Assembly (NCBI GenBank): GCA_958431155.1 | Contig: OY288106.1 | Span: 141,161 to 205,160 of the forward strand | Source: an uncultured candidatus Porisulfidus sp. | GTDB lineage: Bacteria; Pseudomonadota; Gammaproteobacteria; Poriferisulfidales; Poriferisulfidaceae | Reading direction: 5' to 3' | Length of the DNA: 64,000 bases | Shown here: piece after piece, positions 33,070 to 63,174 of the stretch | How the letters are laid out: the number at the start of each line of letters is the position of its first letter | Numbering within the stretch: position 1 is the first letter of the stretch | The notes under the pieces: model-generated | Seen by the model: only the letters and a program-made list of their open reading frames with translations | What the model was told of the DNA's origin: nothing | Database searches by the model: none | Translations under genes and position numbers: made by a program

Positions 33070-33540
33070 GCGCGTGGGTATGGTCGTGGTGTCCGTCGCC
33101 GCGCGAGGCGTAGGCGCCGGGTTCGGGGGAGAAAGGGGCTTGGTGCCGATGAACCTGTGCTCCCAGTTGCCGGGCCATCTCGACGATGACATGGTCGTCC
33201 CGGATTCGCAGGGCGCCATCCGCCAGCACTTGGATGGGAATGTGCCGGTTGCCGATGTGCCAGGCGATCCGGGCAGTTTCGGAGGGCCCGTGGCAGCTCA
33301 GGTCCGCAACCGGCTCTTCGGCCGCCACGACGCGCACATAACCGCCGTCCTCCAGCACCAGGCCGTCGCCTTCGCCCAGGCGTACCGCTTGGGGCAGGTC
33401 CAGGAGAAACGCTTTCCCTTCGTCGGTGGTGAGCCGGATCCGGCGCCGGTGGCGGCCGTCGTAGTCCAGAGTGACCGTGGCGCACTGCCGCTCAATGGGC
33501 CACTCGTTGGCCGAAGCGACGGTGGTTGCGCGCGCCAGCA

Positions 33541-33541
<1 letters not shown>
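33059..33541 (-). CDS. ureE: urease accessory protein UreE (His-rich C-terminus)
   Basis: 160 aa ending [13 protein letters not shown]. Confidence 0.88.
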
Positions 33542-35250
<1,709 letters not shown>

Positions 35251-35253
35251 GGC

Positions 35254-35565
35254 TCAGTCCCCCAGGGGTCCGTTGATGGCGCCGTTGAATCCGTATACCT
35301 GGCCTGCACCGGCGTAGCGCACCAGGGTTACTTCACGGCTCTGCCCCGGCTCGAAGCGCACGGCCGTGCCGGCCGGGATGTCGAGACGGTACCCGCGTGC
35401 GGCTTGGCGGTCGAAATCGAGGGCCGCGTTGACTTCGAAGAAGTGGTAGTGGGAGCCGACCTGCACCGGGCGGTCGCCGGTGTTGGACACGGTCAAGGTC
35501 ACGGTCTCGCGGTCCGCGTTGAGGAGCAGGTCGCCTTTGGCCGGGAGGATTTCGCCGGGAATCAT
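35254..35565 (-). CDS. ureB: urease subunit beta
   Basis: 103 aa; MIPGE start, HYHFFE motif. Confidence 0.95.
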
Positions 35566-35568
35566 GGT

Positions 35569-35871
35569 TCAGCGAATCGGGTTGTGGACGGTGACCAGCT
35601 TGGTCCCGTCGGGAAAGGTCGCTTCGACCTGGATGTCGTGGATCATGTCCGCCACGCCGTCCATGACCTCGTCGCGGCCGAGCACCGTGGCGCCGTCGCG
35701 CATCAGTTCGGCGACGCTGCGCCCGTCGCGCGCGCCCTCGACCACGAAGTCGCTGATCAGGGCGATCGCTTCCGGGTGGTTGAGCTTGACGCCCCGCGCG
35801 CGCCTGCGGCGCGCGACCTCGGCGGCCATGGCGATGAGCAGCTTGTCTTTCTCGCGCGGTGTCAGGTTCAT
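35569..35871 (-). CDS. ureA: urease subunit gamma
   Basis: 100 aa; [13 protein letters not shown] start. Confidence 0.95.
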
Positions 35872-35884
35872 GGCGTCCCCCCTG

Positions 35885-36721
35885 TCAAGCCTGCCACAAC
35901 CTCGGCATTATAGGCGGATAGCCGGCCAGGTGATGGCGGAACGCCGCCCAGAACCGGCCGTAGGCATCGCGCAACTGCAGGCTGTCCCGCCCGAGCCAGC
36001 GGATTACGAGAACGTTTCCCACACAACTCGCGGCCACGCGCAAGGATCCCTCCACCGATTCGTCGATCAGGCTCCGGGCTGGCTCGAGATGCCGGGCGGC
36101 ATCGTCGCCGACGTAAAGGATGCTCGCGCAGGCGCGTGCGCCGTCCAGGCCGGCCGCCGCGTCGCTCACCCGTTCGAATCCGGAATTCAGGTGCAGGGCG
36201 TCCGACCAGACCAGGCGGTCGTCCCAATAGACGTCCCAAGCCTCATGCAGCAAGCCCTGGCGCATGCGCTCGCCCATGGCGGTGCGCCCGAGCACCACCA
36301 TTTCCCCGCACAGCAGACGCGCGCCGGGGACGGCCCGGATCTCGGTCGAGCGCCGCAGCCGCGAGGAGTCGAACAGGATGGTTTCCTGCGGCAGCCACTC
36401 CAGCCAGGAATCCGCTTCTGCCCGCAACTCGATCCCGATGCGGGAATCCGCGCCGGTGGAGCGATAGATTTTTTCCGCCGCCTGGGCCAGAACCCGTCCG
36501 GCCGCACCTTTGCGGCTTGAGATGCGGACCTCCAACTGGTCGCCGCCGACCAGCCCGCCCGACGTGGTGACCAGGACGCCGGTGAGCGGCTCGCCCGTCA
36601 CGTGACGAGGGAACAGCATGCGCAGCGGATTGTGCTGGTACAGCTCGCCGATCACCGTGTTGCCGCGATCTGCCCTGAAGCTCAGGGCGGCGGCGCCATC
36701 CGTGACGGGAGATGCGCTCAT
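35885..36721 (-). CDS. ureD: urease accessory protein UreD
   Basis: 278 aa from internal Met directly after urtE stop; UreD/UreH-like; long 450-aa ORF extension is spurious. Confidence 0.8.
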
Positions 36722-42521: not shown

Positions 42522-42866
42522 TCAGCGTTCCGCGACCGGTGTCAGCACCTCGCGGAAGAAGGGCAGCCAGGACAGCAGCAGCCACAGTACGAAGACGACT
42601 TCCGCCGCCAACACCCGCCGCCAGCGTGCACGAGCCTCGGGCAGGGCGTCGGCGAGGCGGACCGACGACATGAGAATGTCGAACAGCAGCACGAAGAATA
42701 CCAGCGGGGCCGCCGCCGGCAGGACGAGGGTGCGGATCAGGGCGAGGCCCTGCAGGCTCAGCGGCACGCCCGGGTCGGTCGCAGACAGTGCGAGGATGCC
42801 GGTCAGCGCCAGCAGTGCCATGCGCAGGACGCCCAGTTCGGCGGCGAACGCGCGGGCCGAGATCAT
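42522..42866 (-). CDS. small hydrophobic membrane protein (4 predicted TM), translationally coupled to sat
   Basis: 114 aa; ATGA overlap with sat stop; no recognisable motif. Confidence 0.45.
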   Translation of the reverse strand: MISARAFAAELGVLRMALLALTGILALSATDPGVPLSLQGLALIRTLVLPAAAPLVFFVLLFDILMSSVRLADALPEARARWRRVLAAEVVFVLWLLLSWLPFFREVLTPVAER

Positions 42867-44047
42867 AGCGACTGGTAGTAGTCCATCAGGATCCGGGCGA
42901 TCTCCGGGCGGGCGAATTCCAACGGCAGGTCCTCGCCATTGGACAACATCTCCCGCACCCGGGTGCCGGACAGCAGGACAAAGTCCTCTGGCTGGTGGTC
43001 CGGTGCGTCGCGCATCATGACCACCTTGTCGAGCTTCTTGGAGTATGCAGTGTGGTCGGCACGGAAGATCTCGATATCCAGCGCGTCCTGCGAGGCCTGA
43101 TCATCGAAGATCGTCTGCGCATCGAATGCTCCATAGTAGTCGCCGACTCCGGCATGGTCGCGCCCGACGATCAGGTGCGTGCAGCCGGCGTTCTGGCGGA
43201 AGATGGCGTGCAGCACCGCTTCGCGCGGGCCGGCATAAAGCATGTCGAAGCCGTAGCCGGTGATCATCACCGTGTTGGGTGGGAAGTAGAGTTCGACCAT
43301 CTTGCGGATGGCGGCGTCGCGGACGTGGGCCGGGATGTCGCCGGGTTTCAGGCGTCCGAGCAGCATGTGGATGAGCACGCCGTCGGCACCGACCGTCTCC
43401 TGGGCGATCTTGCACAGTTCCTCATGGGCGCGGTGCATCGGGTTGCGGGTCTGGAAGGCCACCACGCGGTTCCAGCCACGCTCGCCGATCTCGTCGCGGA
43501 TCTGCACTGCGGTGCGGAACGTGCCGGCGAATTCCTCCGGGAAGTAGCTGTAGTCCAGCACCTCGATCGGTCCGGAAACCAGGATGCGGCCGTTCTCCAA
43601 AAAGGTCTTGACGCCGGGGTGCTCGGGGTCGGCGGTTCGGAAGACCTGCTCGGCCAGGCGCTCGAGGTCGGCCTCGGACAGGGTCTCGACGGCCTCGACC
43701 TGCTGGATGGCCAGCACCGGGTGGCCGTCCCGGTTGCAATCGCGCAGGGCGATGCGCGACGCGCCCTCAATGGCGGAGGCGTCCCGCGTCTGGTTGAGGA
43801 TCGGCACCGGCCAGAACAGGCCGGATTCGGTGCGCATCTCGCGCCCGACGCGCAGGGCGTCTGCGGCGTTCATGTATCCGGTGAGCGGGGTGAAGTACCC
43901 GCCGGCCATCATGACGGCATTGGCGACGGCGGCAGAGTTGAGCAGAAGAGAAGGCAAGGATTCGGCCTCGTCCCGAAGCGCGGCCGCGCGCCCGGCGTCT
44001 TCCACGGCGAGCGGGGTCAGTTGCTCGCTGGCGTAGGGGTTGATCAT
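42863..44047 (-). CDS. sat: sulfate adenylyltransferase (ATP sulfurylase, single-chain Sat type)
   Basis: 394 aa; QTRN, GRDHAG, HxxH-like motifs of ATP sulfurylase; internal Met start. Confidence 0.88.
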   Translation of the reverse strand: MINPYASEQLTPLAVEDAGRAAALRDEAESLPSLLLNSAAVANAVMMAGGYFTPLTGYMNAADALRVGREMRTESGLFWPVPILNQTRDASAIEGASRIALRDCNRDGHPVLAIQQVEAVETLSEADLERLAEQVFRTADPEHPGVKTFLENGRILVSGPIEVLDYSYFPEEFAGTFRTAVQIRDEIGERGWNRVVAFQTRNPMHRAHEELCKIAQETVGADGVLIHMLLGRLKPGDIPAHVRDAAIRKMVELYFPPNTVMITGYGFDMLYAGPREAVLHAIFRQNAGCTHLIVGRDHAGVGDYYGAFDAQTIFDDQASQDALDIEIFRADHTAYSKKLDKVVMMRDAPDHQPEDFVLLSGTRVREMLSNGEDLPLEFARPEIARILMDYYQSL

Positions 44048-44102
44048 CGGTCTGTCCGGTGAAAAAAGGAAACCATTGTACTGGTTGCCTGGCCAGCGCG
44101 CG

Positions 44103-45566
44103 TCACTGGTCCGGGGAGTCCGGCCCCGAACGCCCGTAGGCATCCTCGAAGCGGGTGATGTCGTCCTCGCCGAGGTAGTCGCCCGACTGCACTTCGATCA
44201 GTTCCAGCGGGGTTTCCGCCGGATTTTCCAGCCGATGCTTCGTGCCGGCCGGGATGTAGGTGGATTCGTTCTCCGAGAGCAGGAAGGTTTCTTCTCCCCG
44301 CGTCACCCGCGCGGTACCGCGCACCACCACCCAGTGCTCCGCCCGGTGCCGGTGCGATTGAAGCGAGAGCTGCTGGCCCGGGTCGACGATGATGTGCTTG
44401 ACCTGGAACCGGTTGCCGCTGTGTACCGAGTCGTAGTGCCCCCAGGGGCGGTAGACCTTGCGGTGGTACCGGCACTCATCGCGGTCGTCCTGCTTGAGTC
44501 GCTCGACCAGTTTCTTGGTGTCTTGGGTCGCGTGCTTGCCGGCGACGAGCAGGGCGTCGGGCGTGTCGATGATAACGAGATCCTCCACACCAAGCGCCGT
44601 CACCAGCCGGGTCTCGCCGCGCGCGTAGGTGTTTCGGGCATCCTGCAGGATCACGTCGCCCTGGGCCACGTTGCCGCATTCGTCCTTATCGGCATGATCG
44701 GACAAATCCGCGAGCGCAGTCCAGGACCCGACGTCGGACCAATCGCTTCCAAGCGGCACCACGACCGCCTCCGAGGTGTGCTCCATGACGGCGTAGTCCA
44801 CCGAAATGGCGGGGGACCGTGCGAAGGATTCCGCATTCAGACGCAGGAATCCGAGATCCGGGGTTGCGTTGCCGTGAGCTTCCCGGATGGACTCAAGGAC
44901 CGGGGCTGCGTGCTGCTGCAGTTCCCCAAGGTAGCGGGTGGCCCCGAAGACGAACATGCCGCTGTTCCAGTAGCAGTCGCCGGCCTCGATCAGCGCGGCG
45001 GCATTCCCGGCATCCGGCTTTTCCACGAAGCGCTCCACGACCCGGCCGCCCTCGCTTGCACCGGTGGGGGAGCCCGCCTTGATGTAGCCGTAGCCGGTTT
45101 CCGGATAGGTGGGGGTTGCGCCAAACGTCACGAGGTGGCCTGTGGCGGCCTCCTGGGTTGCTTCTCCGACCGCCTGCACGAATTTCTCGGTATTCCGGAT
45201 GATGTGGTCCGTGGGTGTGACCAGGAGAATCGGATCGTCGCCGTCGTCGCACCGGGCCAAGGCCTCCAACGCCGCAGAGGCGATGGCCGGTGCCGTGTTG
45301 CGGGCCGTCGGCTCCAGGAGAATGGCCGTCGGCGTCACCCCGATTGCCTGAAATTGTTCCACCACCATGAACCGATGTTTCTTGTTGCAGACCACGATGG
45401 GAGGACGCAGGTCGTCGATGGCTTCCAGCCTGAGGACGGTGGCCTGCAGCAGGGTGTGCTTGTCCACTAGGGCAATGAGCTGCTTCGGGTAGGCTTCCCG
45501 GGACAGCGGCCAGAGCCGGCTGCCGGCACCGCCGGAAAGGATGACAGGAAATAAGGGACCGCTCAT
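44103..45566 (-). CDS. manC: mannose-1-phosphate guanylyltransferase / mannose-6-phosphate isomerase (bifunctional, type II PMI)
   Basis: 487 aa; N-term nucleotidyltransferase GGAGSRLWPLS, C-term cupin (QSHRHRAEHWVVVRGTA). Confidence 0.9.
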   Translation of the reverse strand: MSGPLFPVILSGGAGSRLWPLSREAYPKQLIALVDKHTLLQATVLRLEAIDDLRPPIVVCNKKHRFMVVEQFQAIGVTPTAILLEPTARNTAPAIASAALEALARCDDGDDPILLVTPTDHIIRNTEKFVQAVGEATQEAATGHLVTFGATPTYPETGYGYIKAGSPTGASEGGRVVERFVEKPDAGNAAALIEAGDCYWNSGMFVFGATRYLGELQQHAAPVLESIREAHGNATPDLGFLRLNAESFARSPAISVDYAVMEHTSEAVVVPLGSDWSDVGSWTALADLSDHADKDECGNVAQGDVILQDARNTYARGETRLVTALGVEDLVIIDTPDALLVAGKHATQDTKKLVERLKQDDRDECRYHRKVYRPWGHYDSVHSGNRFQVKHIIVDPGQQLSLQSHRHRAEHWVVVRGTARVTRGEETFLLSENESTYIPAGTKHRLENPAETPLELIEVQSGDYLGEDDITRFEDAYGRSGPDSPDQ

Positions 45567-45705: not shown

Positions 45706-47490
45706 ATGGTTCCAAACTCCGGCAAACACATAGCCCAAAGTTTAATTAAAAGAGCCGACCCGTACCGGGTTCTTCTGCTCGGCGTCTTCGCGGTCGCCGC
45801 CTATTTTTGCCTCGTCAATCTCGATTATGCGGCCTTGTGGTACGACGAGGCACCGGCCGCGATCATCGCCAACAACTTGCTGGAGCAGGGGGACATCATC
45901 GGCTGGGACGGACGCAACTTGGTCGGTGGCACCAACGGGAGCACGCTGAACGAGGACCTTCGAGACGTTCTGCCGCCGCTGATGTACCTGTTCAATGCCG
46001 CCGGGATTTCCGCATTCGGTTTCAACGAAGTCGGTGCGCGCATCGTTCCGGCGCTGATCGGAATCTTTGCGCTGGGGTTGCTCTTTCTGCTCGTGCGGCA
46101 GCAATTGGCAGGGTATCCGCGCCTGGTCTTTTTCGTTTTTCTATTCGCGGCCTGGTCGCCGCAACTCCTTCTGTATTTCCGCCAGTCGCGCTACTTTGCC
46201 TTCATGGCGTTCGCCTTGGTGGCCGTCTTCTATCTGTACGAGCGCTACTGGCAGACTAAAAATGTGGTGTGGCTTGTCGGCCTGACGCTCGTCGCAGCCC
46301 TCTCGTTTTTCAACCATTATGTCGGCGGAGCGGCGACCATGCTGTCGCTGGTTGCGTGGCACCTGATTTTCCATGCCCGGGAAACCACCCGGCGGGAATG
46401 GCTGGCATTTTTCCTTTGCGGGCTCCTGGTGGTGGGGCTGGGCACGGCCTATCTCGCCTTCATAGGACTGATCGGCGGGGAGCGCAGCGAATTTACCCAA
46501 ATTACCGGAATCGCGGGGCTCGAATACCAGGGGAGCGAGCCTATATTTCTGTGGAGAATGTGGGTCTATATGCGCGACATGTTCACTGCGGACTGGATCT
46601 CGTGGCCGGTATTCCTGTGGTTCGCTGGGATGCTTCTGCTCATCTGGCGCTGGCGCAGAGACCAGGTCTGGCAGGCCCGAGCTTCGAGGCAGGTCAAACG
46701 ACAGGCGCAGCGTCGGGGTACTGGCAGCCCCAAATCCGAAGTCAAGGAGCCGGCGGCCGGCTTACCGGTGTTCGCGGCTAGCCGGATCGTGCTGATGGGC
46801 GTATTGTTCGCACTGTTTTCAGCCGCGTTGTCCGTGCAGCCGATCTGGAATTATCCGGTCGCCGATCTGCGTTACTACATGGGTGCATTGCCGCTACTGC
46901 TGGCCATGAAGGGGTTGTTTGCCGAGTGGGTATGGAGAAAATCGAGAGTTGCGGGAGCAGCGACCATCGGGGCGTTGCTGTTCACCAGCGTTGGGGCTGC
47001 GCCGTTCAACATGATCGGGGTGTTCACCGGCGAGCGTACACTGGGTGCGCATTTCTTCCAGTTCATCCGCGAGATTCATCGTCCGTACCGGGACTCCGTA
47101 CAGGTCGTGTCCGACTACCTTCTGGAGCATGCCGACAAGGACGACTTGGTGTATGTGCCAAGCTTCAATAGCCGTGAGGCATTGACCTTCAGGGTCGGCC
47201 ACCATGTCCGGTTATGTTGCGTCCTTCACAAGAACACGCATTTACCGCATGCCGCGGTCGAGGCGCTGGATGCCCCCTTGTATATCGAGGAACACACACC
47301 CGAATGGATCGTCCTGTTCGACCACAGGTTGGAAGAATTAAGGAAAGGGATTGAATCGCACTATGTGGTGGTCGAGAAACTGGATGTGCACTGGTACCAG
47401 ACGCAGCGCCCGGAGTTGAACTTCCGGGCCTTCGAGCCTTTGCCTGCCCGGCATGGTGTCCTCGTCCTGCGTCAGAAAGACGAGCCGTAG
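45706..47490 (+). CDS. GT-C membrane glycosyltransferase, PMT_2 / ArnT-like (GT39/GT83 family)
   Basis: 594 aa, ~12 TM; first-loop WYDEA (DE) motif; large C-terminal soluble domain. Confidence 0.7.
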   Translation: MVPNSGKHIAQSLIKRADPYRVLLLGVFAVAAYFCLVNLDYAALWYDEAPAAIIANNLLEQGDIIGWDGRNLVGGTNGSTLNEDLRDVLPPLMYLFNAAGISAFGFNEVGARIVPALIGIFALGLLFLLVRQQLAGYPRLVFFVFLFAAWSPQLLLYFRQSRYFAFMAFALVAVFYLYERYWQTKNVVWLVGLTLVAALSFFNHYVGGAATMLSLVAWHLIFHARETTRREWLAFFLCGLLVVGLGTAYLAFIGLIGGERSEFTQITGIAGLEYQGSEPIFLWRMWVYMRDMFTADWISWPVFLWFAGMLLLIWRWRRDQVWQARASRQVKRQAQRRGTGSPKSEVKEPAAGLPVFAASRIVLMGVLFALFSAALSVQPIWNYPVADLRYYMGALPLLLAMKGLFAEWVWRKSRVAGAATIGALLFTSVGAAPFNMIGVFTGERTLGAHFFQFIREIHRPYRDSVQVVSDYLLEHADKDDLVYVPSFNSREALTFRVGHHVRLCCVLHKNTHLPHAAVEALDAPLYIEEHTPEWIVLFDHRLEELRKGIESHYVVVEKLDVHWYQTQRPELNFRAFEPLPARHGVLVLRQKDEP

Positions 47491-47529: not shown

Positions 47530-49206
47530 TTAGTCCGCGTAGCGGATTCCGAAATCGGCAGGAGGAAGCAGGCTGTTGGGTTTGATTTTCTTCATGGTGA
47601 CATACCAGCCAGCGGTGACGTTTGGCGCGTAGTCTCGCCACCGTCGAACTTCCGGATCTCTTGCCTCGCGGCGCCAGATGCGAACCGGGCCGAACTCCCG
47701 CTCGATCCGATGGCCGGGAATGACCAAATCCGGATTTTCGGACAGGATGTGGCTGGCGGACCGGGCTAAGTTGTGTGTGGTCGTCTCGCCGATGATCTGG
47801 AGTGTTCTCCTGTCGTAGAACGGTATTTTCCGGTGGAGGTAGTAGTAACCGGGTAGTTCGTGATAGTACCGGTCGCCATGCACCACTCCCGTGACGCCAG
47901 GTGCCTGCGCGAGATAGCGATAGGCTTCGAATAGCGGATTCCGCTCGCGGAAGAAATTGATGGTTCCATGATAGTTTGAATAGCCGTGATAGACCCGGTG
48001 CTGTTCGGGCAGCGCGTTCAGGATTCCCGCCACCGAGACTAGTGCGAATACGGAAGCTATGGCTGTAGCCGGCCAGGGTGGGTGGGGCCAGCGCGCAGCG
48101 AGCCGAGCCGTCAAGTCCGAGCCGATCAGAAGCCAGAGGGGAATCGCCGCGAAAATAAATCGGTACTCCTTGTGTGCCGACAGGGAATGGATCAACAGGA
48201 TTATGGTGGCCATGACGAGCAGGAATCCGTAGCGCCGGGGATTGAATAGGGCTGCCAGAACGCAGAGTGCCCCCAATCCGGTACTCGCAAGCCCAAGCCA
48301 CAGGAGGAACTGATAGGGCGGGCTTTCGCCGGTGCGCATCGGGTCGAGAACGAGGTTGGCCTGGATATTTGTGAAGTAGGAATGGAACAATCCGGCGTCC
48401 CACGTGATTCCATCGAACAGGCCGATGGCGAGAAAAGCCGTGATGGCCGCCAGCGTCAGCTGCATCCGGTGACGGGTGTAGAGAAAAGCCACTCCCAGGG
48501 GGAGCAATGCGAGCGGCGCGTACTGCAGGCGTGTGGCTGCCACGAGAACCGAAAGAAAGGCGGTCAGCCAAATCGTTCGGGTCCGATCCAAGGGCGTGCG
48601 CATGCACAGCGCGAGCAGCACGCAGAGCAGGGCTGTCGCCACGAATTCCGTCATCGGCTTGTGGGCGAAACCGACCAGTTCGTACCAGAAGGCTCCCGCT
48701 ACAAGCGCAATTCTTGCTGCCGTCTCGCTGAAATGCCGGCGGGCGAAAAAGTACATCCCCGCCGGAATCAGCAGGGAGACCGCGCAGAACAGGAGTTTGA
48801 TTGCATCGATGTACCAGTGCGGCTGGCCGAGGCCGAGCAGGTCGAACAATGCCAGCGCCGCCGCGACCAGCCCGGGCACCAGCCAGGAGCGCCCGCCGTA
48901 GAAGAACTCCCAGTGGATGATGCCGCTGCCGAACACCAGACGATGTGCCGGCTCCAGGTACTGCATGATCTCGTCCGGGTGCAGAGCAAAGTCTCCCGCC
49001 AGGGCCACTGCCGCGCGTGCCGCGAAAGCCAGAATCAGTATCCACGGCAGGAGTTTCCAGTAAGGTTCGCCAGGTGTCTGCGGATGGAGCAGGGCGTCGG
49101 GAATCGCCCGCATGCGTTGCCGGAGCGGAACCGCCTGCGGCTCCGGGGGACGACTGGTGAGAGCCCGCCGCTGCGCCTGCCTCCTTTTTCTTTCCGCTTT
49201 GCCCAT
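47530..49206 (-). CDS. GT-C membrane mannosyltransferase, GT22 (PIG-B/Alg9-like) family; start may be 49113
   Basis: 558 aa polytopic; N-terminal HPDEIMQYLEPAHR matches GT22 HxDE..Q signature. Confidence 0.6.
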   Translation of the reverse strand: MGKAERKRRQAQRRALTSRPPEPQAVPLRQRMRAIPDALLHPQTPGEPYWKLLPWILILAFAARAAVALAGDFALHPDEIMQYLEPAHRLVFGSGIIHWEFFYGGRSWLVPGLVAAALALFDLLGLGQPHWYIDAIKLLFCAVSLLIPAGMYFFARRHFSETAARIALVAGAFWYELVGFAHKPMTEFVATALLCVLLALCMRTPLDRTRTIWLTAFLSVLVAATRLQYAPLALLPLGVAFLYTRHRMQLTLAAITAFLAIGLFDGITWDAGLFHSYFTNIQANLVLDPMRTGESPPYQFLLWLGLASTGLGALCVLAALFNPRRYGFLLVMATIILLIHSLSAHKEYRFIFAAIPLWLLIGSDLTARLAARWPHPPWPATAIASVFALVSVAGILNALPEQHRVYHGYSNYHGTINFFRERNPLFEAYRYLAQAPGVTGVVHGDRYYHELPGYYYLHRKIPFYDRRTLQIIGETTTHNLARSASHILSENPDLVIPGHRIEREFGPVRIWRREARDPEVRRWRDYAPNVTAGWYVTMKKIKPNSLLPPADFGIRYAD

Positions 49207-49441: not shown

Positions 49442-50641
49442 TCAGGCATGACGCCTTTGCTTGCCCCGGATGATTCCAGACCTGCTCTGAATCAGGAGGT
49501 CTCTATCGTGGTGCCGACCTTCCGCGAGGCGGACAACCTCCCGGTCTTGGCCAGGCGCATCGACGCCGCGCTGTCCGGGAGCGGAATCGAGTGGGAACTG
49601 ATTCTGGTCGATGACGATTCGGGCGACGGTAGCGAAGAAGCAGCCGAAAAACTGGCACAGCACTTGCCGGTGCGCATGGAAGTGCGCCGTGAGCCACCCC
49701 GGGACCTGTCCCTGTCGGTACTCCATGGAATCCGCATCGGCCGGTTCGACCGGATCGTGGTTATGGATGCCGACCTGTCGCATCCGCCGGAGCGCATCCC
49801 CGACCTGATCTGCGCACTGGACGGCGAGTGCGACATGGCCGTGGGCAGCCGCTATGTGTCCGGCGGCCGCATCGATCAGGGCTGGAGCCTGTGGCGCCTT
49901 CTGAACTCGTACGGAGCCACCCTGCTGGCACGTCCGCTGGCGGACTGCTCCGACCCGATGTCGGGATTCTTCGCGCTCGACCGCCGCATGCTCCCGGATC
50001 TGGAACAACTGCGGCCGGTCGGCTACAAGATCGGTCTTGAACTCATGGTGCGAGGACGATTGCGGGTGGTGGAAGTCCCGATTGATTTTGCCGATCGGGA
50101 TCGTGGCGCAAGCAAGATGAACCTGCGCCAGCAACTCAACTACCTTCGCCACCTCAAACGTCTGTACCTGTACCGTTTCGGCGGTTTAGCGCGTGTGTTG
50201 AGCTTCGGCATGGTGGGGGTCAGCGGCTTCGTCATCGATCTCGTTTTCTACTTGGGCCTGCAGGCCTTGGGCCTTGAGCACCGTCTGGCGCGCTTTGTGT
50301 CTTTTTGGCCTGCGGTCAGCTGGAACTGGTGGTTAAACCGGCGCGTCACTTTCGATGATCGCCCGCGGCAGGCCCCGACTCGCCAATGGGCCCGATTCGT
50401 GATCGCGAGTCTGGTCGGACTGGGCGTCAACGTCGGCAGTTACCTGGCCCTGACAAGCTACGTGGCGGTGTTCGCCCGCTATCCGCTATTCGCATTCTTT
50501 CTCGGAATCGCCCTTGGCGGGGGGATCAATTTTCTGGTCTCGACCCTGTATGTCTACCGATGGCATTCGGCTTCGAAAGGGGGTTCCAACCGGGAGACAT
50601 CCGCCTGCTCCGACGCCGTGCCGCCGCGCGAGGAGCGCTGA
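49442..50641 (+). CDS. polyprenol-phosphate mannose synthase-like GT2 fused to GtrA-like 4-TM domain
   Basis: 397 aa; VVPTFREADNL, VDDDSGDGS (DxD) GT2 motifs; C-terminal GtrA-like TM bundle. Confidence 0.78.
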   Translation, partial: SGMTPLLAPDDSRPALNQEVSIVVPTFREADNLPVLARRIDAALSGSGIEWELILVDDDSGDGSEEAAEKLAQHLPVRMEVRREPPRDLSLSVLHGIRIGRFDRIVVMDADLSHPPERIPDLICALDGECDMAVGSRYVSGGRIDQGWSLWRLLNSYGATLLARPLADCSDPMSGFFALDRRMLPDLEQLRPVGYKIGLELMVRGRLRVVEVPIDFADRDRGASKMNLRQQLNYLRHLKRLYLYRFGGLARVLSFGMVGVSGFVIDLVFYLGLQALGLEHRLARFVSFWPAVSWNWWLNRRVTFDDRPRQAPTRQWARFVIASLVGLGVNVGSYLALTSYVAVFARYPLFAFFLGIALGGGINFLVSTLYVYRWHSASKGGSNRETSACSDAVPPREER

Positions 50642-50648
50642 GGATTCG

Positions 50649-53192
50649 ATGGGCAAGGCCAGCCGGAGCAAGGCGGAACGGAGGCGCCTGAGGGAGGCCG
50701 AAGCGCAATCCGTCGCGGGGGGAGAGCCCGTAACGACGAGTCGCACGCCGCAGGGGCTGGCTTCGTTTTTCACGGCGCCCGGTCCGCCCAGCGATTTTCC
50801 GTACCATGCCGGGCTCGGCGTCCTATTGCTCGCCTTGCTGGTGGTGGCCAGTTACTACCCGGTGCTTCTGGCCGGATTCATCTGGGATGACGTCGCCTTC
50901 ACCGACGCACAGCCGGTTAGGGAATGGTCTGGAATCTGGGACATTTGGTTTCATCCGGAGTCGCTCGCGAAGGAAGGGCACTACTGGCCGGTCGTGTATA
51001 CGAGTTTCTGGCTGGAACATAAATTGTGGGGATTTGCGGCGGCTGGCTACCACGCGGTCAATATTCTGCTGCAACTGGTCAACACTCTGCTGGTGTGGCG
51101 GCTGATGCTGCGTCTGGCGGTGCCCGGCGCTTGGCTCATTGCTGCCGTGTTCGCCGTGCATCCGCTGCATGTCGAGTCGGTGGCCTGGATTATCGAGCGC
51201 AAAGATTTGCTTTCGGGCCTGTTTTACCTTTCGGCCGTTCTGGTCTGGTTGCGCTTCATGGACGAGCCGCGCCGGGGGCACTATTTCCTGGCGATGGGAC
51301 TGTTCGTGGCGAGTCTCCTCAGCAAGACCGTCACGGTGACTTTGCCTGCGGCGCTGCTGGTGTTGTACTGGTGGAAACGGGAGCGCGTGGCCATGGCGGA
51401 CGTGTTGCCGCTATTGCCGTTTTTTGTAGTGGGGTTCGCCATCACTCTGGGTGACATGTCGTACTACACCTCCCGGGAGATTTTGGATCTGGATTATTCA
51501 TTCATCGAGCGAGCGCATATTGCGGCGCAGGCCCTGTGGTTCTATGTGGGCAAGTTGCTGTGGCCGACCAACCTGATAGTCGTTTACCCGTTCTGGGAAG
51601 TCGGAGCCGCGAATCCAATTGGCTGGATGTATCTTGCTGCTGCCATTGCCTTGGTGGCAGTACTGTGGCTTGTGCGGGAGAGGATCGGTCGAGGACCGCT
51701 GGCCGCGACGCTGTTCTTCGGGGTGACGCTGTCGCCGGTGCTCGGCTTCGTGGACTACGGCTACATGCAGTTCTCCTTCGTCGCCGACCGTTTCCAGTAC
51801 CTGGCCGGCATCGGCGCGATGGCGGCGCTCATCGGAGCCGCGGTTCATGCGGCCGGGAGGCTGCCGGAAGCGGCAAGGAAAAGTGCTTTGGGCGCTGCCC
51901 TGCTCGGAATCGCCCTGTTGGCGGCGCTGTCTTGGAAGCAATCCCACATCTATCGGGATGAGATCGTCTTCTTCGAATACATCATCGCGCACAACCCGCA
52001 GGCACGGGATGCCCACCACAATCTCGGCAAGGCGCTGTATGAAGTCGGACGCATGGATGAGGCTCTTGTGGCCACCCGCGTTGCCGTGGAGCAGCGCCCG
52101 GATTTTGCGGGTGCCCACAACAACCTGGGTCTAGCGCTCAAGCATCATGGCGAACTGATCGGGGCGGAAAAAGCCTTCCGGCGCGGTCACAAGGCCGACC
52201 CGCGCGACAAGAAGATCCTTCAGAATCTAGGCGAGGTGATTCGATGGCAGGGCCGGCACGAGGAATCGCTGGATTGGTACGACGCCATCCTCAAACGCGA
52301 CCGGAACAACTCGCGAGCTTACGCGGGCAAGGGCAATGCCCTGTTCTCCCTGAAGCGGTACGACGAGGCCATCGTAAACCTGAAGAAGGCACTGTCCTTG
52401 GAGCCAGACATGCCGCAGGCGCCACTGCTCCATACCCTCATCGGCGATGCAGCACAGGAATTGGGTCAGTTCGAGGAAGCACGGCGACACTATGAGCATG
52501 CCCTGCAGATCGAACCGGGATTGGGCCAGGCGCATGCGAATCTGATCGGCATGCTGCTCGACCTGCAACGTCCCGCAGAGGTGGAGCGGCGTCTGCAGGT
52601 CGTCCGCGACCTGAGCGCGGACGATCCGGTCAACCTGCAGGGCGTGGCTGAACTATTCAGGAAACGGGAGCAGTACGAGCGGGCGCTTGAATGGTACGAC
52701 GCGGTATTTCGGATCGATCCCGACTACACTCAGGCTTATGCGGGCAAGGGCGAGGCCTTGTTCCGCCTGAATCGGCACGAGGAAGCGATCAAATCCTTGG
52801 GGCAGGCCGTCGCCCTGGAACCCGACATGCCGACCGTACCGACACTGCGCGTGCTTATGGGCGAGTCGGCTCAGGCTCTGGGCCGGATGGAAGAGGCGTC
52901 GGAACAGTACGATCGGGTCTTGGAGGCCGACCCGGACCACACGGGCGCGATTGACCGGCTCGCCATGGTGCGTTACGAGCAGGGACGCCTTGAGGAGGCG
53001 CTTGAACTCTACCGGCGGCACATCGGCATCGAACCCGGCAGCGCGAACGCCCATGCCAACCTCGGCGTCGTGCTGTACAGGATGGGGCGCTCCGAAGAGG
53101 CGCGCGAGGTCTTGGAACATGCGCTTTCCCTGGATCCAGCAACGGTCATGGCGCAGACCGTACTGGAACTGATTCGCAAGGAATCGAAATAG
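50649..53192 (+). CDS. TMTC-like protein: N-terminal DUF1736-type GT-C membrane domain fused to long TPR array
   Basis: 847 aa; FIWDD (first-loop DD), VHPLHVESVAWIIERKDLL motif characteristic of TMTC/DUF1736; >=9 TPR units in C-terminal 450 aa. Confidence 0.75.
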   Translation: MGKASRSKAERRRLREAEAQSVAGGEPVTTSRTPQGLASFFTAPGPPSDFPYHAGLGVLLLALLVVASYYPVLLAGFIWDDVAFTDAQPVREWSGIWDIWFHPESLAKEGHYWPVVYTSFWLEHKLWGFAAAGYHAVNILLQLVNTLLVWRLMLRLAVPGAWLIAAVFAVHPLHVESVAWIIERKDLLSGLFYLSAVLVWLRFMDEPRRGHYFLAMGLFVASLLSKTVTVTLPAALLVLYWWKRERVAMADVLPLLPFFVVGFAITLGDMSYYTSREILDLDYSFIERAHIAAQALWFYVGKLLWPTNLIVVYPFWEVGAANPIGWMYLAAAIALVAVLWLVRERIGRGPLAATLFFGVTLSPVLGFVDYGYMQFSFVADRFQYLAGIGAMAALIGAAVHAAGRLPEAARKSALGAALLGIALLAALSWKQSHIYRDEIVFFEYIIAHNPQARDAHHNLGKALYEVGRMDEALVATRVAVEQRPDFAGAHNNLGLALKHHGELIGAEKAFRRGHKADPRDKKILQNLGEVIRWQGRHEESLDWYDAILKRDRNNSRAYAGKGNALFSLKRYDEAIVNLKKALSLEPDMPQAPLLHTLIGDAAQELGQFEEARRHYEHALQIEPGLGQAHANLIGMLLDLQRPAEVERRLQVVRDLSADDPVNLQGVAELFRKREQYERALEWYDAVFRIDPDYTQAYAGKGEALFRLNRHEEAIKSLGQAVALEPDMPTVPTLRVLMGESAQALGRMEEASEQYDRVLEADPDHTGAIDRLAMVRYEQGRLEEALELYRRHIGIEPGSANAHANLGVVLYRMGRSEEAREVLEHALSLDPATVMAQTVLELIRKESK

Positions 53193-53221
53193 CGTAGAGG
53201 GGTGCGCCGGGGCGTGTCCCT

Positions 53222-53249
53222 TTGAAATTGACCGCTCGAACCCCCAATT
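53222..53249 (+). promoter_or_regulatory. sigma-32-type heat-shock promoter candidate for clpB (TTGAAA-N14-CCCCAATT), -10 embedded in inverted repeat CGAACCCC-N11-GGGGTTCG
   Basis: Close match to sigma-32 consensus 30 nt upstream of clpB ATG. Confidence 0.55.
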
Positions 53250-53279
53250 TAACAAGGGGTTCGACGAACGATTGACGAC

Positions 53280-60267: not shown

Positions 60268-61152
60268 ATGACCCGTTTTCAAGGCAGCATGGTTGCCATG
60301 GCGACTCCCATGAGCGTATCAGGGGAGGTGGACTATGCGGCGCTGTCCACGCTGGTGGACTTTCATCTGGAACAGGGCAGCGACGCGCTGGTCCCGGTCG
60401 GCACGACGGGGGAATCGGCCACCCTGAGCATCGCCGAGCACCATGAGGTGATCCGCCACGTGGTGGATCAGGTGAGAGGACGGGTTCCGGTCATCGCGGG
60501 CACCGGTGCCAACGCCACCACCGAGGCCATCGAACTGACCCGTTATGCGCAGGAGGCCGGAGCCGACGCCTGCCTGTTGGTGACCCCGTATTACAACAAG
60601 CCGACCCAAGAGGGCCTGTACCGGCATTACCGGGCCATTGCCAGGGCTGTGGCGATCCCGCAGATCCTGTACAACGTCCCGGGTCGGACGGCCTGCGACA
60701 TGCTGCCGGAGACGGTGGCGCGGTTGGTCGAACTGGAACCGATCATCGGCATCAAGGAGGCGACCGGCGACCTGGAACGGATTCGTCGCCTGCGCGAGTT
60801 ATGCGGCGATGCGTTCATAATCATCAGCGGAGACGACGAGACATCCATGGAAACCTTAATGAATGGAGGGCGGGGAGTCATCACGGTGACGGGCAACGTG
60901 GCCCCCAGGTTGATGCACGAGATGTGCCAGGCGGCGCTGGCCGGCGACGACCAGACGGCGCGGGCCTGCGACCAGAAGCTGGAGCTCCTCCACCGGGACC
61001 TGTTTGTCGAATCGAACCCGATCCCGGTGAAATGGTGTCTGCACCGGATGGGGCTGATCCCGGAAGGGATTCGCCTGCCGCTGACTCCGCTCTCGGAGGC
61101 GCACCACGAGACCCTGGATGCCGCCATGCGCGCGGCGGGGGTGCTGGCGTGA
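60268..61152 (+). CDS. dapA: 4-hydroxy-tetrahydrodipicolinate synthase
   Basis: 294 aa; GTTGES and catalytic Lys region (IIGIKEATGD). Confidence 0.95.
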   Translation: MTRFQGSMVAMATPMSVSGEVDYAALSTLVDFHLEQGSDALVPVGTTGESATLSIAEHHEVIRHVVDQVRGRVPVIAGTGANATTEAIELTRYAQEAGADACLLVTPYYNKPTQEGLYRHYRAIARAVAIPQILYNVPGRTACDMLPETVARLVELEPIIGIKEATGDLERIRRLRELCGDAFIIISGDDETSMETLMNGGRGVITVTGNVAPRLMHEMCQAALAGDDQTARACDQKLELLHRDLFVESNPIPVKWCLHRMGLIPEGIRLPLTPLSEAHHETLDAAMRAAGVLA

Positions 61153-62240
61153 GACGCTGGCTGTGGGCGGGCTGCCTGGCGGGCACGCTTGCGGGCTGCG
61201 GGGACGAGCCCCTGACCGTCGAGGAGTTGGTTGGCGAGGCGGCGGACGTATTCGAATCCGACTGGTTCGGGGACGAGGAAGAATACGGTGCCAGCCAGTC
61301 GACCGAGGCGCTCAGGGTGCCGCCGCAGTTGAGCCTGCCGGACACCAGTGGGCAACTGCTCATCCCGGAGTTTGGCGGAGTCAGTGCAAAGAAAACGAGC
61401 CGGGGCGCGGCCGCGGTGCTGCCGGGTTTTCTGGAGATGAAGGTACGCCGGGAAGGCAACGTGCGATGGCTCGAGGTGGGCGCGGACCCGGTCACCCTGT
61501 GGCCGCACTTGCGCGCGTTCTGGGAAGACCAGGGATTCGAACTGGTCCAGGAGGCGCCGCTGATCGGCATCCTGGAGACGCAGTGGCGCGAGAAGGCGGA
61601 CGATGTCCGGGGCATGCAATCGGAATCCGGGACTCCGTACTATGCGGCGTCGCGCGAAAAATTCCGGCTGCGCATGGAGCGTGAGCCGAACGCCTACGCC
61701 AACCTGTTCATCACGCGGCAGAAGCTGGAGGTGGCGGGCGTGGACGCCAACGACGCGGTGATCTGGAAGGCCGGGCGGCCGGATCCGGACCGCGAGGCCG
61801 AAATGCTGGTCCGCCTGATGGAGTATCTGGGTGCTTCGAGGATGGAAGGCGTCGCCACTCTGGAAGAAGAGGAGGTGGAAGCCACCGTCGGCCTCGACCT
61901 GCAGTACATCGGTGGCATTCCGGTGCTGATGGTGGAGGACGAATACAGCAGCGTGTGGCGCCAGGTCGGCGTCGCCCTGGAACGGACGGGACTGTACGTG
62001 GTCGATTCGGACCGCGACCAGGGGACCTACGTGTTCCGCTACGGGGAGCGGGCCGCCACTGGCGGAAAAGGCATCCTGCTGGAAGTGCACCTGCTGGCGC
62101 GCGAGGAGGACCTGACGTTGCTGACGGTGCACCGTCACAAATCGAAGCAACCCGCGGGCAAGGAGTTGACCCGCAACGTGCTGCGCGCGGTCCTGGCCGC
62201 ATACGCGCTGGTGCCCCGGGCCACGGCCCAGTCGGAATAG
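61149..62240 (+). CDS. bamC: outer membrane protein assembly factor BamC (lipoprotein), GTG start
   Basis: Lipobox LAGC; conserved dapA-bamC pairing; 4-nt overlap with dapA stop. Confidence 0.8.
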   Translation: MRRWLWAGCLAGTLAGCGDEPLTVEELVGEAADVFESDWFGDEEEYGASQSTEALRVPPQLSLPDTSGQLLIPEFGGVSAKKTSRGAAAVLPGFLEMKVRREGNVRWLEVGADPVTLWPHLRAFWEDQGFELVQEAPLIGILETQWREKADDVRGMQSESGTPYYAASREKFRLRMEREPNAYANLFITRQKLEVAGVDANDAVIWKAGRPDPDREAEMLVRLMEYLGASRMEGVATLEEEEVEATVGLDLQYIGGIPVLMVEDEYSSVWRQVGVALERTGLYVVDSDRDQGTYVFRYGERAATGGKGILLEVHLLAREEDLTLLTVHRHKSKQPAGKELTRNVLRAVLAAYALVPRATAQSE

Positions 62241-62277
62241 TCTAAAAGCGGTGTGAGGCCGCGGAGGCAGTCCGCGG

Positions 62278-63174
62278 TCAGTCGTCCTTGTCTTGCGGCG
62301 TGATGCCGGACTGCATCCGGGACATGGCGAGGTAGGTGATGTTGTCGCGCCGCGAGACGACGTCCCGGGACTTGTCCTTCTCGATGCAGGCGTAGGCCGA
62401 GTGGTTATGGATGGACTCGAAGTTCTCCGACTCCACCTTGTAGGCCCGGACCCGGTCGTCCTCGTTGAGCCGCATGGCGAGGTCGCGGACCATGTCTTCC
62501 ACGAACTTGGGGTTGTCGTAGGCACGCTCGGTGACGTACTTCTCGTCCGGACGCTTGAGCAGCCCGAACAGTTCACAGGACGCCTCGCCCTCGGCCATCT
62601 CGATCAGGTCCTCGATCCAGACCGGCCGGACCAGAGTCACGGTGAGCGTGATGCGGGAGCGCTGGTTGTGTGCGCCGTAGTCCGAGATGCTCTTGGAGCA
62701 GGGACACAGGCTGGTGACCGGGATCGCGATGGACGCGGTCAGGCGCATGTCGCCGCGGTTGAAGTGCCCGCGCAGGCGAATCTGGTAGTCCAGGTAGCTG
62801 CGCACGCCGGACACCGGGGCGGCCTTGTTCATGAAGAACGGGAAGGCCATGTCGATGAAGCCTTCCTCCGCGTCGAGCCGCGTCGCCATGCTGCGCAGCA
62901 AGCCCCCGAAGCTTTCCAACGAGATCGCTTTCTTGTGGTCCTGCAGGACATGCACGAAACGGGACATGTGCGTGCCCTTGACCTCCGGCGGCAGGTTGAC
63001 CGTCATGGTCAGGCGCGCGACCGTGGACTGCGGCGTGCCGCTGCGGTCGACGAACTCGATCGGGTGCAGGATGTCCTTGATGCCGACCTGGTTGATGGGG
63101 ATCGCCCGGGTGTCCGCCGAGCTTTGCTCGTCGTGCAGGTTCTCGCTGTGCTGGAGGGGGTCGGAGGAAGCCAT
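62278..63174 (-). CDS. folE2: GTP cyclohydrolase FolE2 (type IB)
   Basis: 298 aa; GTHMSRF, CPCS metal-site motifs of FolE2/MptA family. Confidence 0.9.

Follow-up and report, generated by a model that had tools for sequence, protein, structure and literature searches.

The closest described relatives of the protein considered here are the animal proteins TMTC1-4, which constitute CAZy family GT105 and act as protein O-mannosyltransferases for cadherins and protocadherins in the endoplasmic reticulum, an activity that as of 2021 was without direct demonstration (PMC7801869). Prokaryotic TMTC homologues receive passing mention in the literature, and bacterial protein O-mannosylation has been studied just for the actinobacterial Pmt enzymes of family GT39 (PMC11727336, PMC5882110). 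The present analysis concerns a 64,000-nucleotide stretch of DNA from an uncultured candidatus Porisulfidus sp. (the window), in which the plus-strand gene at 50649..53192 (stop codon included) encodes a protein of 847 residues with an N-terminal membrane domain and a C-terminal array of tetratricopeptide repeats (TPRs). On profile evidence this protein is clearly a glycosyltransferase of the GT-C class, specifically and reciprocally homologous to the animal TMTCs. The explanation that we favour, at a probability of about 0.5, is that it would serve as an inner-membrane TMTC-type GT-C enzyme that takes mannose from a polyprenyl-phosphate-mannose donor and transfers it on the periplasmic side, likely to a protein. 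What was computed here as its basis is the GT-C fold, the specific homology to TMTCs, the conserved motifs, the predicted topology and the gene linkage.

Since homologues of the full protein number 6,637 among 8,000 candidates scored, and those of the N-terminal domain (N-domain) alone amount to 62,939 representatives of 50 %-identity clusters at E<=1e-3 (35,631 at 1e-10 and 6,088 at 1e-30), 50649-53192 is, judged by its relatives, a real gene. Its 847 codons run without an internal stop, the opposite strand is closed and stop-rich, and the ATG at 50649 is preceded by an AGGA Shine-Dalgarno sequence and lies 7 nt past the TGA of the upstream gene. A longer open reading frame (ORF) could start from the TTG at 50514, and the ATG is preferred because the orthologues, which share this start, are 843-848 residues long. 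No second copy of the N-domain is present in the window.

Pfam and NCBIfam scans of the full protein return TPR families alone, and because these matches hid the N-domain the latter was scanned by itself. Its sole Pfam match is to PMT_2 (PF13231; 25.8 bits, E 1.4e-5, residues 114-266, cut-off 26.1), a family that is also reached at E<=1 by 24 of 42 diverse relatives (best 5e-10). A hidden Markov model (HMM) of 12 animal TMTC1-4 N-domains, rebuilt from the alignment in the supplementary file of Eisenhaber et al. 2021 (PMC7801869), matches the window protein with 84.9 bits (E 3.3e-28, residues 58-237) as well as 121 of 123 test sequences, and matches neither of the neighbouring GT-C proteins. 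In the local mode of HH-suite the bacterial family meets the TMTC alignment at 99.7 % probability (E 4e-26), and the alignment of residues 55-431 with TMTC1 positions 5-429 covers the membrane domain in full. The reverse profile, made from 42 bacterial N-domains of many phyla, finds all 12 TMTCs with 77-118 bits, often end to end, and returns no match to ArnT or to the GT22, 594-residue GT-C and GT2 proteins encoded alongside. The protein is far closer in sequence to the TMTCs than to PMT_2, and it differs from the PMT/POMT and actinobacterial Pmt enzymes of GT39 in having no MIR/beta-trefoil domain, with TPRs in its place. Sequence searches of the Protein Data Bank (PDB) with the N-domain and with the family profile gave no related solved structure, and therefore no TMTC-type structure is present in the copies searched (Foldseek entries up to the April 2026 release).

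The overall architecture comes from an AlphaFold2 model of the 847-residue protein, which was built from 76 homologues and has a mean predicted local distance difference test (pLDDT) score of 86.4 and a predicted template modelling score of 0.70. Foldseek searches with the full-length model were dominated by TPR proteins, and because these swamped the fold search a separate model of the N-domain only was made. The protein begins with a tail, residues 1-53 (50649..50807, +), which is predicted to be cytoplasmic, opens with MGKASRSKAERRRLRE, is basic (8 K/R) and poorly conserved, and contains an amphipathic helix at residues 4-22. The GT-C membrane domain follows, residues 54-436 (50808..51956, +), a multi-span domain with 11 predicted transmembrane (TM) helices, the conserved helical core of the GT-C class and, as expected of that class, acidic residues in the first extracytoplasmic loop. 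The topology was derived from the 11 helices of the model together with loop charge counts, the TPR domain being excluded: in the loops that were placed in the cytoplasm there are 14 K+R and 8 D+E, and in the periplasmic ones 7 K+R and 17 D+E. The predicted arrangement has the N-terminus on the cytoplasmic side, and the loops with DD and HPxHxE, residue K226, loop 4, DRxxY and the TPR array all face the periplasm. This matches the arrangement derived for TMTCs, where an 11-TM N-terminal domain precedes a C-terminal TPR array on the non-cytoplasmic side. An earlier reading of the sequence, here called the preliminary description, had proposed a TMTC-type GT-C fold and a TPR array, with the DD motif and the TPRs both periplasmic; reciprocal profile homology and the model bear out the first, and the model helices and charge counts predict the second.

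The window protein shares with TMTC1-4 the DD pair, the Y-x-P of motif M2, HPxHxE together with RxD, the Lys and Thr of M4, the second Pro of M6 and (D/E)RxxY. These were compared using the motif definitions of Table 4 of PMC7801869, and conservation was assessed in 76 orthologues and in 42 diverse relatives with N-domains 38-79 % identical to that of the window protein. FIWDD, one of the two motifs first picked out, is found at residues 77-81, and its acid pair D80-D81 (M1; 50886..50891, +), which aligns with the TMTC DD in the first periplasmic loop and is the putative catalytic pair, is invariant in 76/76 orthologues and 42/42 relatives. From the SHKSYRP motif (M2, loop EL1) the core Y112-x-P114 alone is kept and is invariant; opposite H89/K90 the alignments place either E109/G110 or a gap, and H111 stands at the S91 position. 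The other motif block, VHPLHVESVAWIIERKDLL, is found at residues 170-188, and within it HPLHVESVAWIIERKD (residues 171-186; 51159..51206, +) in periplasmic loop 2 contains the HPxHxE block and the RxD of M3, aligned to TMTC HP(I/V)HTEAV..GRAD. Here R184-K185-D186 comes after H171-P-L-H-V-E176, with H171, P172, H174, E176 and K185 invariant in 42/42 and the D replaced by N in 26/42 wider relatives. The M4 equivalent K226-T231 (KTVTVT; 51324..51341, +) keeps the Lys and final Thr of KE(T/Q)xxT in loop EL3, the PxxP of M6 in TM9 is T360-x-x-P363 with the second Pro alone conserved and P363 invariant, and the M7 equivalent D380-R381-F-Q-Y384 (51786..51800, +) corresponds to the ERxxY of loop EL5, a predicted phosphate contact, with a conservative E-to-D change and with R as H in 26/42 wider relatives. 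Periplasmic loop 4, residues 277-322 (51477..51614, +), is the positional equivalent of the DUF1736 loop of TMTCs and conserves R288 and Y313-P314-x-W316.

The HPxHxE sequence (51159-51176, residues 171-176, here HPLHVE) lies outside the published TMTC motifs M1-M7, and it shows no variation among the 42 bacterial relatives or the 12 animal TMTCs. Residues 175-179 have a pLDDT below 50, the least confident stretch of the membrane-domain model, and in structural terms this could be a mobile metal-binding or catalytic loop.

The TPR superhelix, which is predicted to be periplasmic, occupies residues 455-846 (52011..53186, +) according to the model and Pfam, and consists of 11 helix pairs across residues 455-828 followed by a capping helix; an initial count of at least nine TPRs was thus correct, if low. 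The near-duplicate RYDEAI and RHEEAI units that had been remarked upon belong to a real internal duplication, in which residues 524-623 (52218..52517, +, with RYDEAI) align to residues 663-762 (52635..52934, +, with RHEEAI) at 47 % identity and a score of 258, shuffled sequences giving 31 +/- 6. The best structural match of the superhelix, found with Foldseek, is the TPR domain of OGT (1W3B, E 1e-16). In OGT the TPR superhelix binds protein substrates; the likeness of OGT and SPINDLY to the C-terminal part of the window protein is one of repeat scaffold only, the catalytic domains being unrelated (GT-B fold, nucleotide-sugar donor, cytosolic). A polysaccharide-export TPR scaffold was considered as well, as the TPR region gives sub-threshold NCBIfam matches to PgaA, BcsC and PrsT, and was ruled out by the GT-C N-terminus and by scores far under cut-off (33-135 bits against 312-858); no porin or barrel domain of the kind that partners export scaffolds is present in the 847-residue protein.

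Which sugar would such an enzyme use, and what would receive it? With respect to the sugar, the gene directly upstream (49448..50641, +) encodes a polyprenyl-phosphate mannose synthase homologue, in which a GT2 domain (PF00535, 86 bits) is joined to a four-TM domain of the GtrA and dolichol-phosphate mannose synthase (DPMS) type (PF04138, 71 bits). It matches the Dol-P-Man synthase of P. furiosus (PfDPMS, 5MLZ) with E 7.8e-62 over residues 16-365, a span that takes in the TM domain and in which the DAD metal site is kept; its matches to ArnC and GtrB are at about 1e-16 and 1e-7. This bears out the linkage to a polyprenyl-phosphate mannose (Ppm) synthase that had been noted from the outset. With a gap of 7 bp between the two genes, the TMTC-like gene is probably translationally coupled to the DPMS-like gene, whose product is likely, from its family and position, to be the donor synthase of the TMTC-like enzyme. 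Further upstream lie a GT22 (Alg9-like) GT-C protein, a putative polyprenyl-P-Man-dependent mannosyltransferase (47530..49206, -; PF03901, 99 bits), a third GT-C protein of 594 residues with a weak PMT_2 match, which is a partner in some relatives (45706..47490, +), and ManC, a GDP-mannose pyrophosphorylase / phosphomannose isomerase (44103..45566, -; TIGR01479, 658 bits), which is also linked at loci L009, L020 and L024. Linkage was counted across 82 loci, made up of 23 closest orthologues and 59 more distant ones, and the 23 are adjoined by a DPMS-like gene in 8 cases, GT22 in 11 and the 594-residue GT-C in 4. Where checked, the DPMS-like gene is on the same strand and directly upstream of the TMTC-like gene.

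There are therefore four independent pointers to mannose within one 9-kb stretch, namely the PfDPMS homologue, GT22, ManC and the TMTC homology, and together they argue moderately strongly that mannose is the sugar. That the enzyme instead uses a different lipid-linked sugar, such as glucose or a diphosphate-linked oligosaccharide, with the mannose context being coincidental, seems improbable. The specificity of GT2 polyprenyl-phosphate glycosyltransferases is not reliably readable from sequence, the 49448-50641 product has a Ser where PfDPMS binds metal through a Gln (DADLQ), and most of the distant family members are without a linked DPMS-like gene, all of which would suit such a reading; the four coinciding pointers and the difference between the PfDPMS and ArnC E-values speak against it. 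To our knowledge, all characterised GT22 enzymes use Dol-P-Man, which counts against it too.

The mechanism that we favour, with mannose as the sugar and periplasmic transfer, would run as follows. ManC would provide GDP-mannose, from which the DPMS-like enzyme would charge polyprenyl phosphate (presumably undecaprenyl phosphate) with mannose at the cytoplasmic face of the membrane. The lipid-linked mannose would then reach the periplasmic face, possibly with the help of the GtrA-like TM domain of the same DPMS-like enzyme, and be bound in a periplasm-facing pocket of the TMTC-like protein formed by D80/D81, the HPxHxE/RKD loop, K226 and DRxxY. From here an inverting transfer would pass the mannose to an acceptor that the periplasmic TPR superhelix holds; by analogy with TMTCs, this acceptor would most likely be Ser/Thr in folded proteins of the periplasm or outer membrane. 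The GT22 and 594-residue GT-C proteins would probably extend the glycan or serve other acceptors. Of the role proposed at the outset, a Man-P-polyprenol-dependent O-mannosyltransferase, the homology and the donor-synthase context thus stand, and the role itself is a reading of those two. The protein would resemble TMTC1-4 in its polyprenyl-P-mannose donor, as it does in its 11-TM GT-C domain, extracytoplasmic TPR array and reciprocal, specific profile homology. It differs in being bacterial, placed in the inner membrane, periplasm-facing and operon-linked to a donor synthase and two further GT-C proteins.

A protein as acceptor is a weaker proposition than mannose as the sugar, resting as it does on analogy. 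A comparison is offered by the three-component GtrA/GtrB/Gtr* and ArnC/ArnT systems, which likewise combine a GT2 polyprenyl-phosphate synthase, a GtrA-type module and an extracytoplasmic GT-C enzyme (PMC11127046). The present locus has the adjacent GT2 synthase gene and the GtrA-type component, the latter with a putative role in flipping; it departs from these systems in that synthase and GtrA-like module are fused, as in archaeal DPMS, in the long TPR array carried by the GT-C protein, and in having up to three GT-C proteins per synthase. The known three-component systems modify O-antigen, lipid A and teichoic acids, not proteins. An ArnT-like modification of lipid A can be ruled out here, as a profile search found no sequence relationship to ArnT (GT83). 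The main rival reading is that an enzyme of the same class with the same donor has a glycan or lipid as its acceptor, such that the three GT-C proteins build or decorate a periplasmic mannan, lipoglycan or lipopolysaccharide-type polymer and the TPRs provide a scaffold toward periplasmic or outer-membrane partners. Mycobacterial PimE, MptA and MptB, which use Ppm1, are glycan-building analogues. We consider this unlikely, though far from negligible: the conserved module does join three GT-C proteins to one donor synthase, the classical three-component systems of bacteria all act on glycans or lipids (PMC11127046), TPR arrays occur in polysaccharide-export scaffolds, and the TPR region has its weak PgaA, BcsC and PrsT matches. 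Against it, TMTC1-4, the nearest homologues for which any functional data exist, have proteins as their substrates, ArnT goes undetected by the family profile, the export-scaffold scores fall far short of their cut-offs, and the 64-kb window holds no O-antigen, exopolysaccharide or capsule locus.

Homologues of the protein are found in many lineages, the genome matches including Gammaproteobacteria, Alphaproteobacteria, Binatia, Latescibacterota, Chloroflexota and Acidobacteriota, as well as Planctomycetota, Verrucomicrobiota, Elusimicrobiota, Spirochaetia and Nitrospina. The source databases name them just 'tetratricopeptide repeat protein'. Many of the closest genome matches (L022, L023, L026, L027, L010, L035 and others) are metagenome-assembled genomes (MAGs) of lineages that we take to be sponge-associated, namely Poriferihabitaceae, Entotheonella and 'SB06xx' bins; closest matches also come from Latescibacterota and Binatia. 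The gammaproteobacterium to which the window belongs is itself probably marine or host-associated. At least two tandem copies are present at 23 of the 82 loci. The largest array, in a Ca. Poriferihabitaceae MAG (L023:1-18397), has 8 N-domain matches in 18.4 kb, and those at L043, L033, L058, L066 and L073 have 4-6. In the seven complete copies of L023 the N-domains are 82-90 % identical and the TPR domains, of 181-429 residues, are 36-74 % identical, which suggests a recent amplification with TPR diversification.

A number of findings weigh against protein O-mannosylation by a TMTC-type enzyme, or at least against a close copy of the animal one. The preliminary description had assigned the N-domain to DUF1736 and had named an HMM score below threshold as what would count against this. 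PF08409 (TMTC_DUF1736) gives no match at E<=10 to the isolated N-domain, is found at E<=1 in 0/42 diverse relatives and appears in the precomputed annotation of 0/120 best homologues. Human TMTC3, run against the same library as a positive control, reaches 109 bits (E 1e-31), and all human TMTCs have E<1e-30 except for the canonical TMTC1 entry Q8IUR5 at 3e-19 (PMC7801869). Because PF08409 goes undetected where the control scores, the label formally falls, though the homology to TMTCs does not. In addition, the Glu of M4 is T227 here and S/T throughout the family, and the DW of M5 (loop EL4) falls in an alignment gap, the family having Y313-P314-x-W316-(E/D) instead; loop 4, which is about 9 residues shorter than in TMTCs, lacks both the DNP and DW signatures. 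In TMTC models the M4 Lys contacts phosphate, and the M4 Glu and DW Asp are the proposed metal ligands (PMC7801869), so that with both of these missing the active-site chemistry may differ from that of the TMTCs. The differences from TMTC1-4 thus comprise PF08409, DNP, DW, the M4 Glu and the unaligned H/K of SHKSYRP, and by sequence the protein is a clear TMTC homologue from a distinct clade that has neither the DUF1736 signature nor the two proposed metal ligands.

Should the absence of these two ligands, and the database label that mentions TPRs only, be taken to mean that the membrane domain has no catalytic activity, leaving the protein as just a membrane-anchored TPR scaffold? We find this scarcely credible, given the coupling of the gene to a donor synthase and the fact that DD, HPxHxE, K226, P363 and Y384 are invariant in 42 sequences that are 38-79 % identical, which is the pattern expected of a maintained active site. 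The remaining points that tell against our favoured mechanism concern its context. The 59 more distant loci are poorly linked to a donor synthase, with a DPMS-like gene, GT22 and the 594-residue GT-C adjoining in one case each; no candidate acceptor gene is linked to the TMTC-like gene, and none is obvious in the rest of the window; and three GT-C proteins with one donor synthase would also fit mannan or lipoglycan assembly. The diversification of the TPRs is clear just in L023 and not in L043, L033 or L058, where domain boundaries are crude, and is to be read as a hint. Finally, no characterised bacterial TMTC-like enzyme was found in full-text literature searches, in keeping with the early view of the bacterial members as widespread and uncharacterised.

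The window protein is an ordinary member of a very large uncharacterised clade, and what is new is the divergence of this clade from the TMTC definition together with the conserved module that includes a DPMS-type donor synthase and GT22. The presence of a bacterial TMTC homologue beside its own donor synthase means that expression in E. coli could test donor, acceptor, mechanism and structure. If periplasmic O-mannosylation is correct, this would be the first tractable one-operon system of donor and transferase for TMTC biochemistry and structure, and with protein acceptors it would mean that a new kind of envelope modification is very common across many phyla (about 63,000 cluster representatives); with a glycan or lipid acceptor the module would instead define a new Gram-negative pathway to a mannan or lipoglycan. 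A wider proposal, which we put forward tentatively and with the odds somewhat against it, is that diderm bacteria possess an unrecognised and widespread TMTC-type periplasmic protein O-mannosylation with this protein and its DPMS-like, GT22 and GT-C partners at its core, in which the TPRs would select folded acceptors and the paralogue arrays would diversify their range, and of which the cadherin pathway of animal TMTCs would be a descendant.

The module itself varies between related loci. The 75 % identical orthologue of locus L001 lies on one strand with the 594-residue GT-C, DPMS-like, TMTC-like, GT22 and clpB genes in that order, and the order in L003 (52 % orthologue) is DPMS-like, TMTC-like, GT22 and GT-C. 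In the window GT22 (47530-49206) is inverted and upstream of the DPMS-like gene, and in L001 (10558-12234) it follows the TMTC-like gene in the same orientation; the L001 locus also lacks the ManC gene that the window has. The module is locally rearranged between the two. In L002 (51 % orthologue) GT22 extends into the beginning of the TMTC-like gene, and a 46-residue DPMS-like fragment (57 % identity) upstream of GT22 (L002:5999-6140) may, from its similarity, be a decayed donor-synthase gene. A promoter scan of the module gave hits at chance level, and none of 15 terminator-like sites falls between module genes.

Upstream of clpB, the region 53193-53279 contains TTTGAAA-N13-CCCCCAATTT, which resembles the consensus of sigma-32 heat-shock promoters. 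Because of this apparent sigma-32-type promoter, and because the adjacency of clpB is kept in L001 and not in L003, clpB is probably transcribed on its own and outside the glycosylation module. The rest of the window has the character of ordinary chromosome and encodes a secretin, Lon, a PpiD-like protein, ABC transporters and ProS. For two long ORFs, 33526-35913 (+, 795 residues) and 60627-62576 (-, 649 residues), Pfam gives no match at E<=1e-5. Each is overlapped by long ORFs of the other strand, and may be either a chance frame in GC-rich DNA or a gene that belongs to no known family. On the minus strand, the manC ORF shares 41 nt (44103-44143) with an ATP-sulfurylase ORF (42863-44143), and one of the two start codons may be mis-set.

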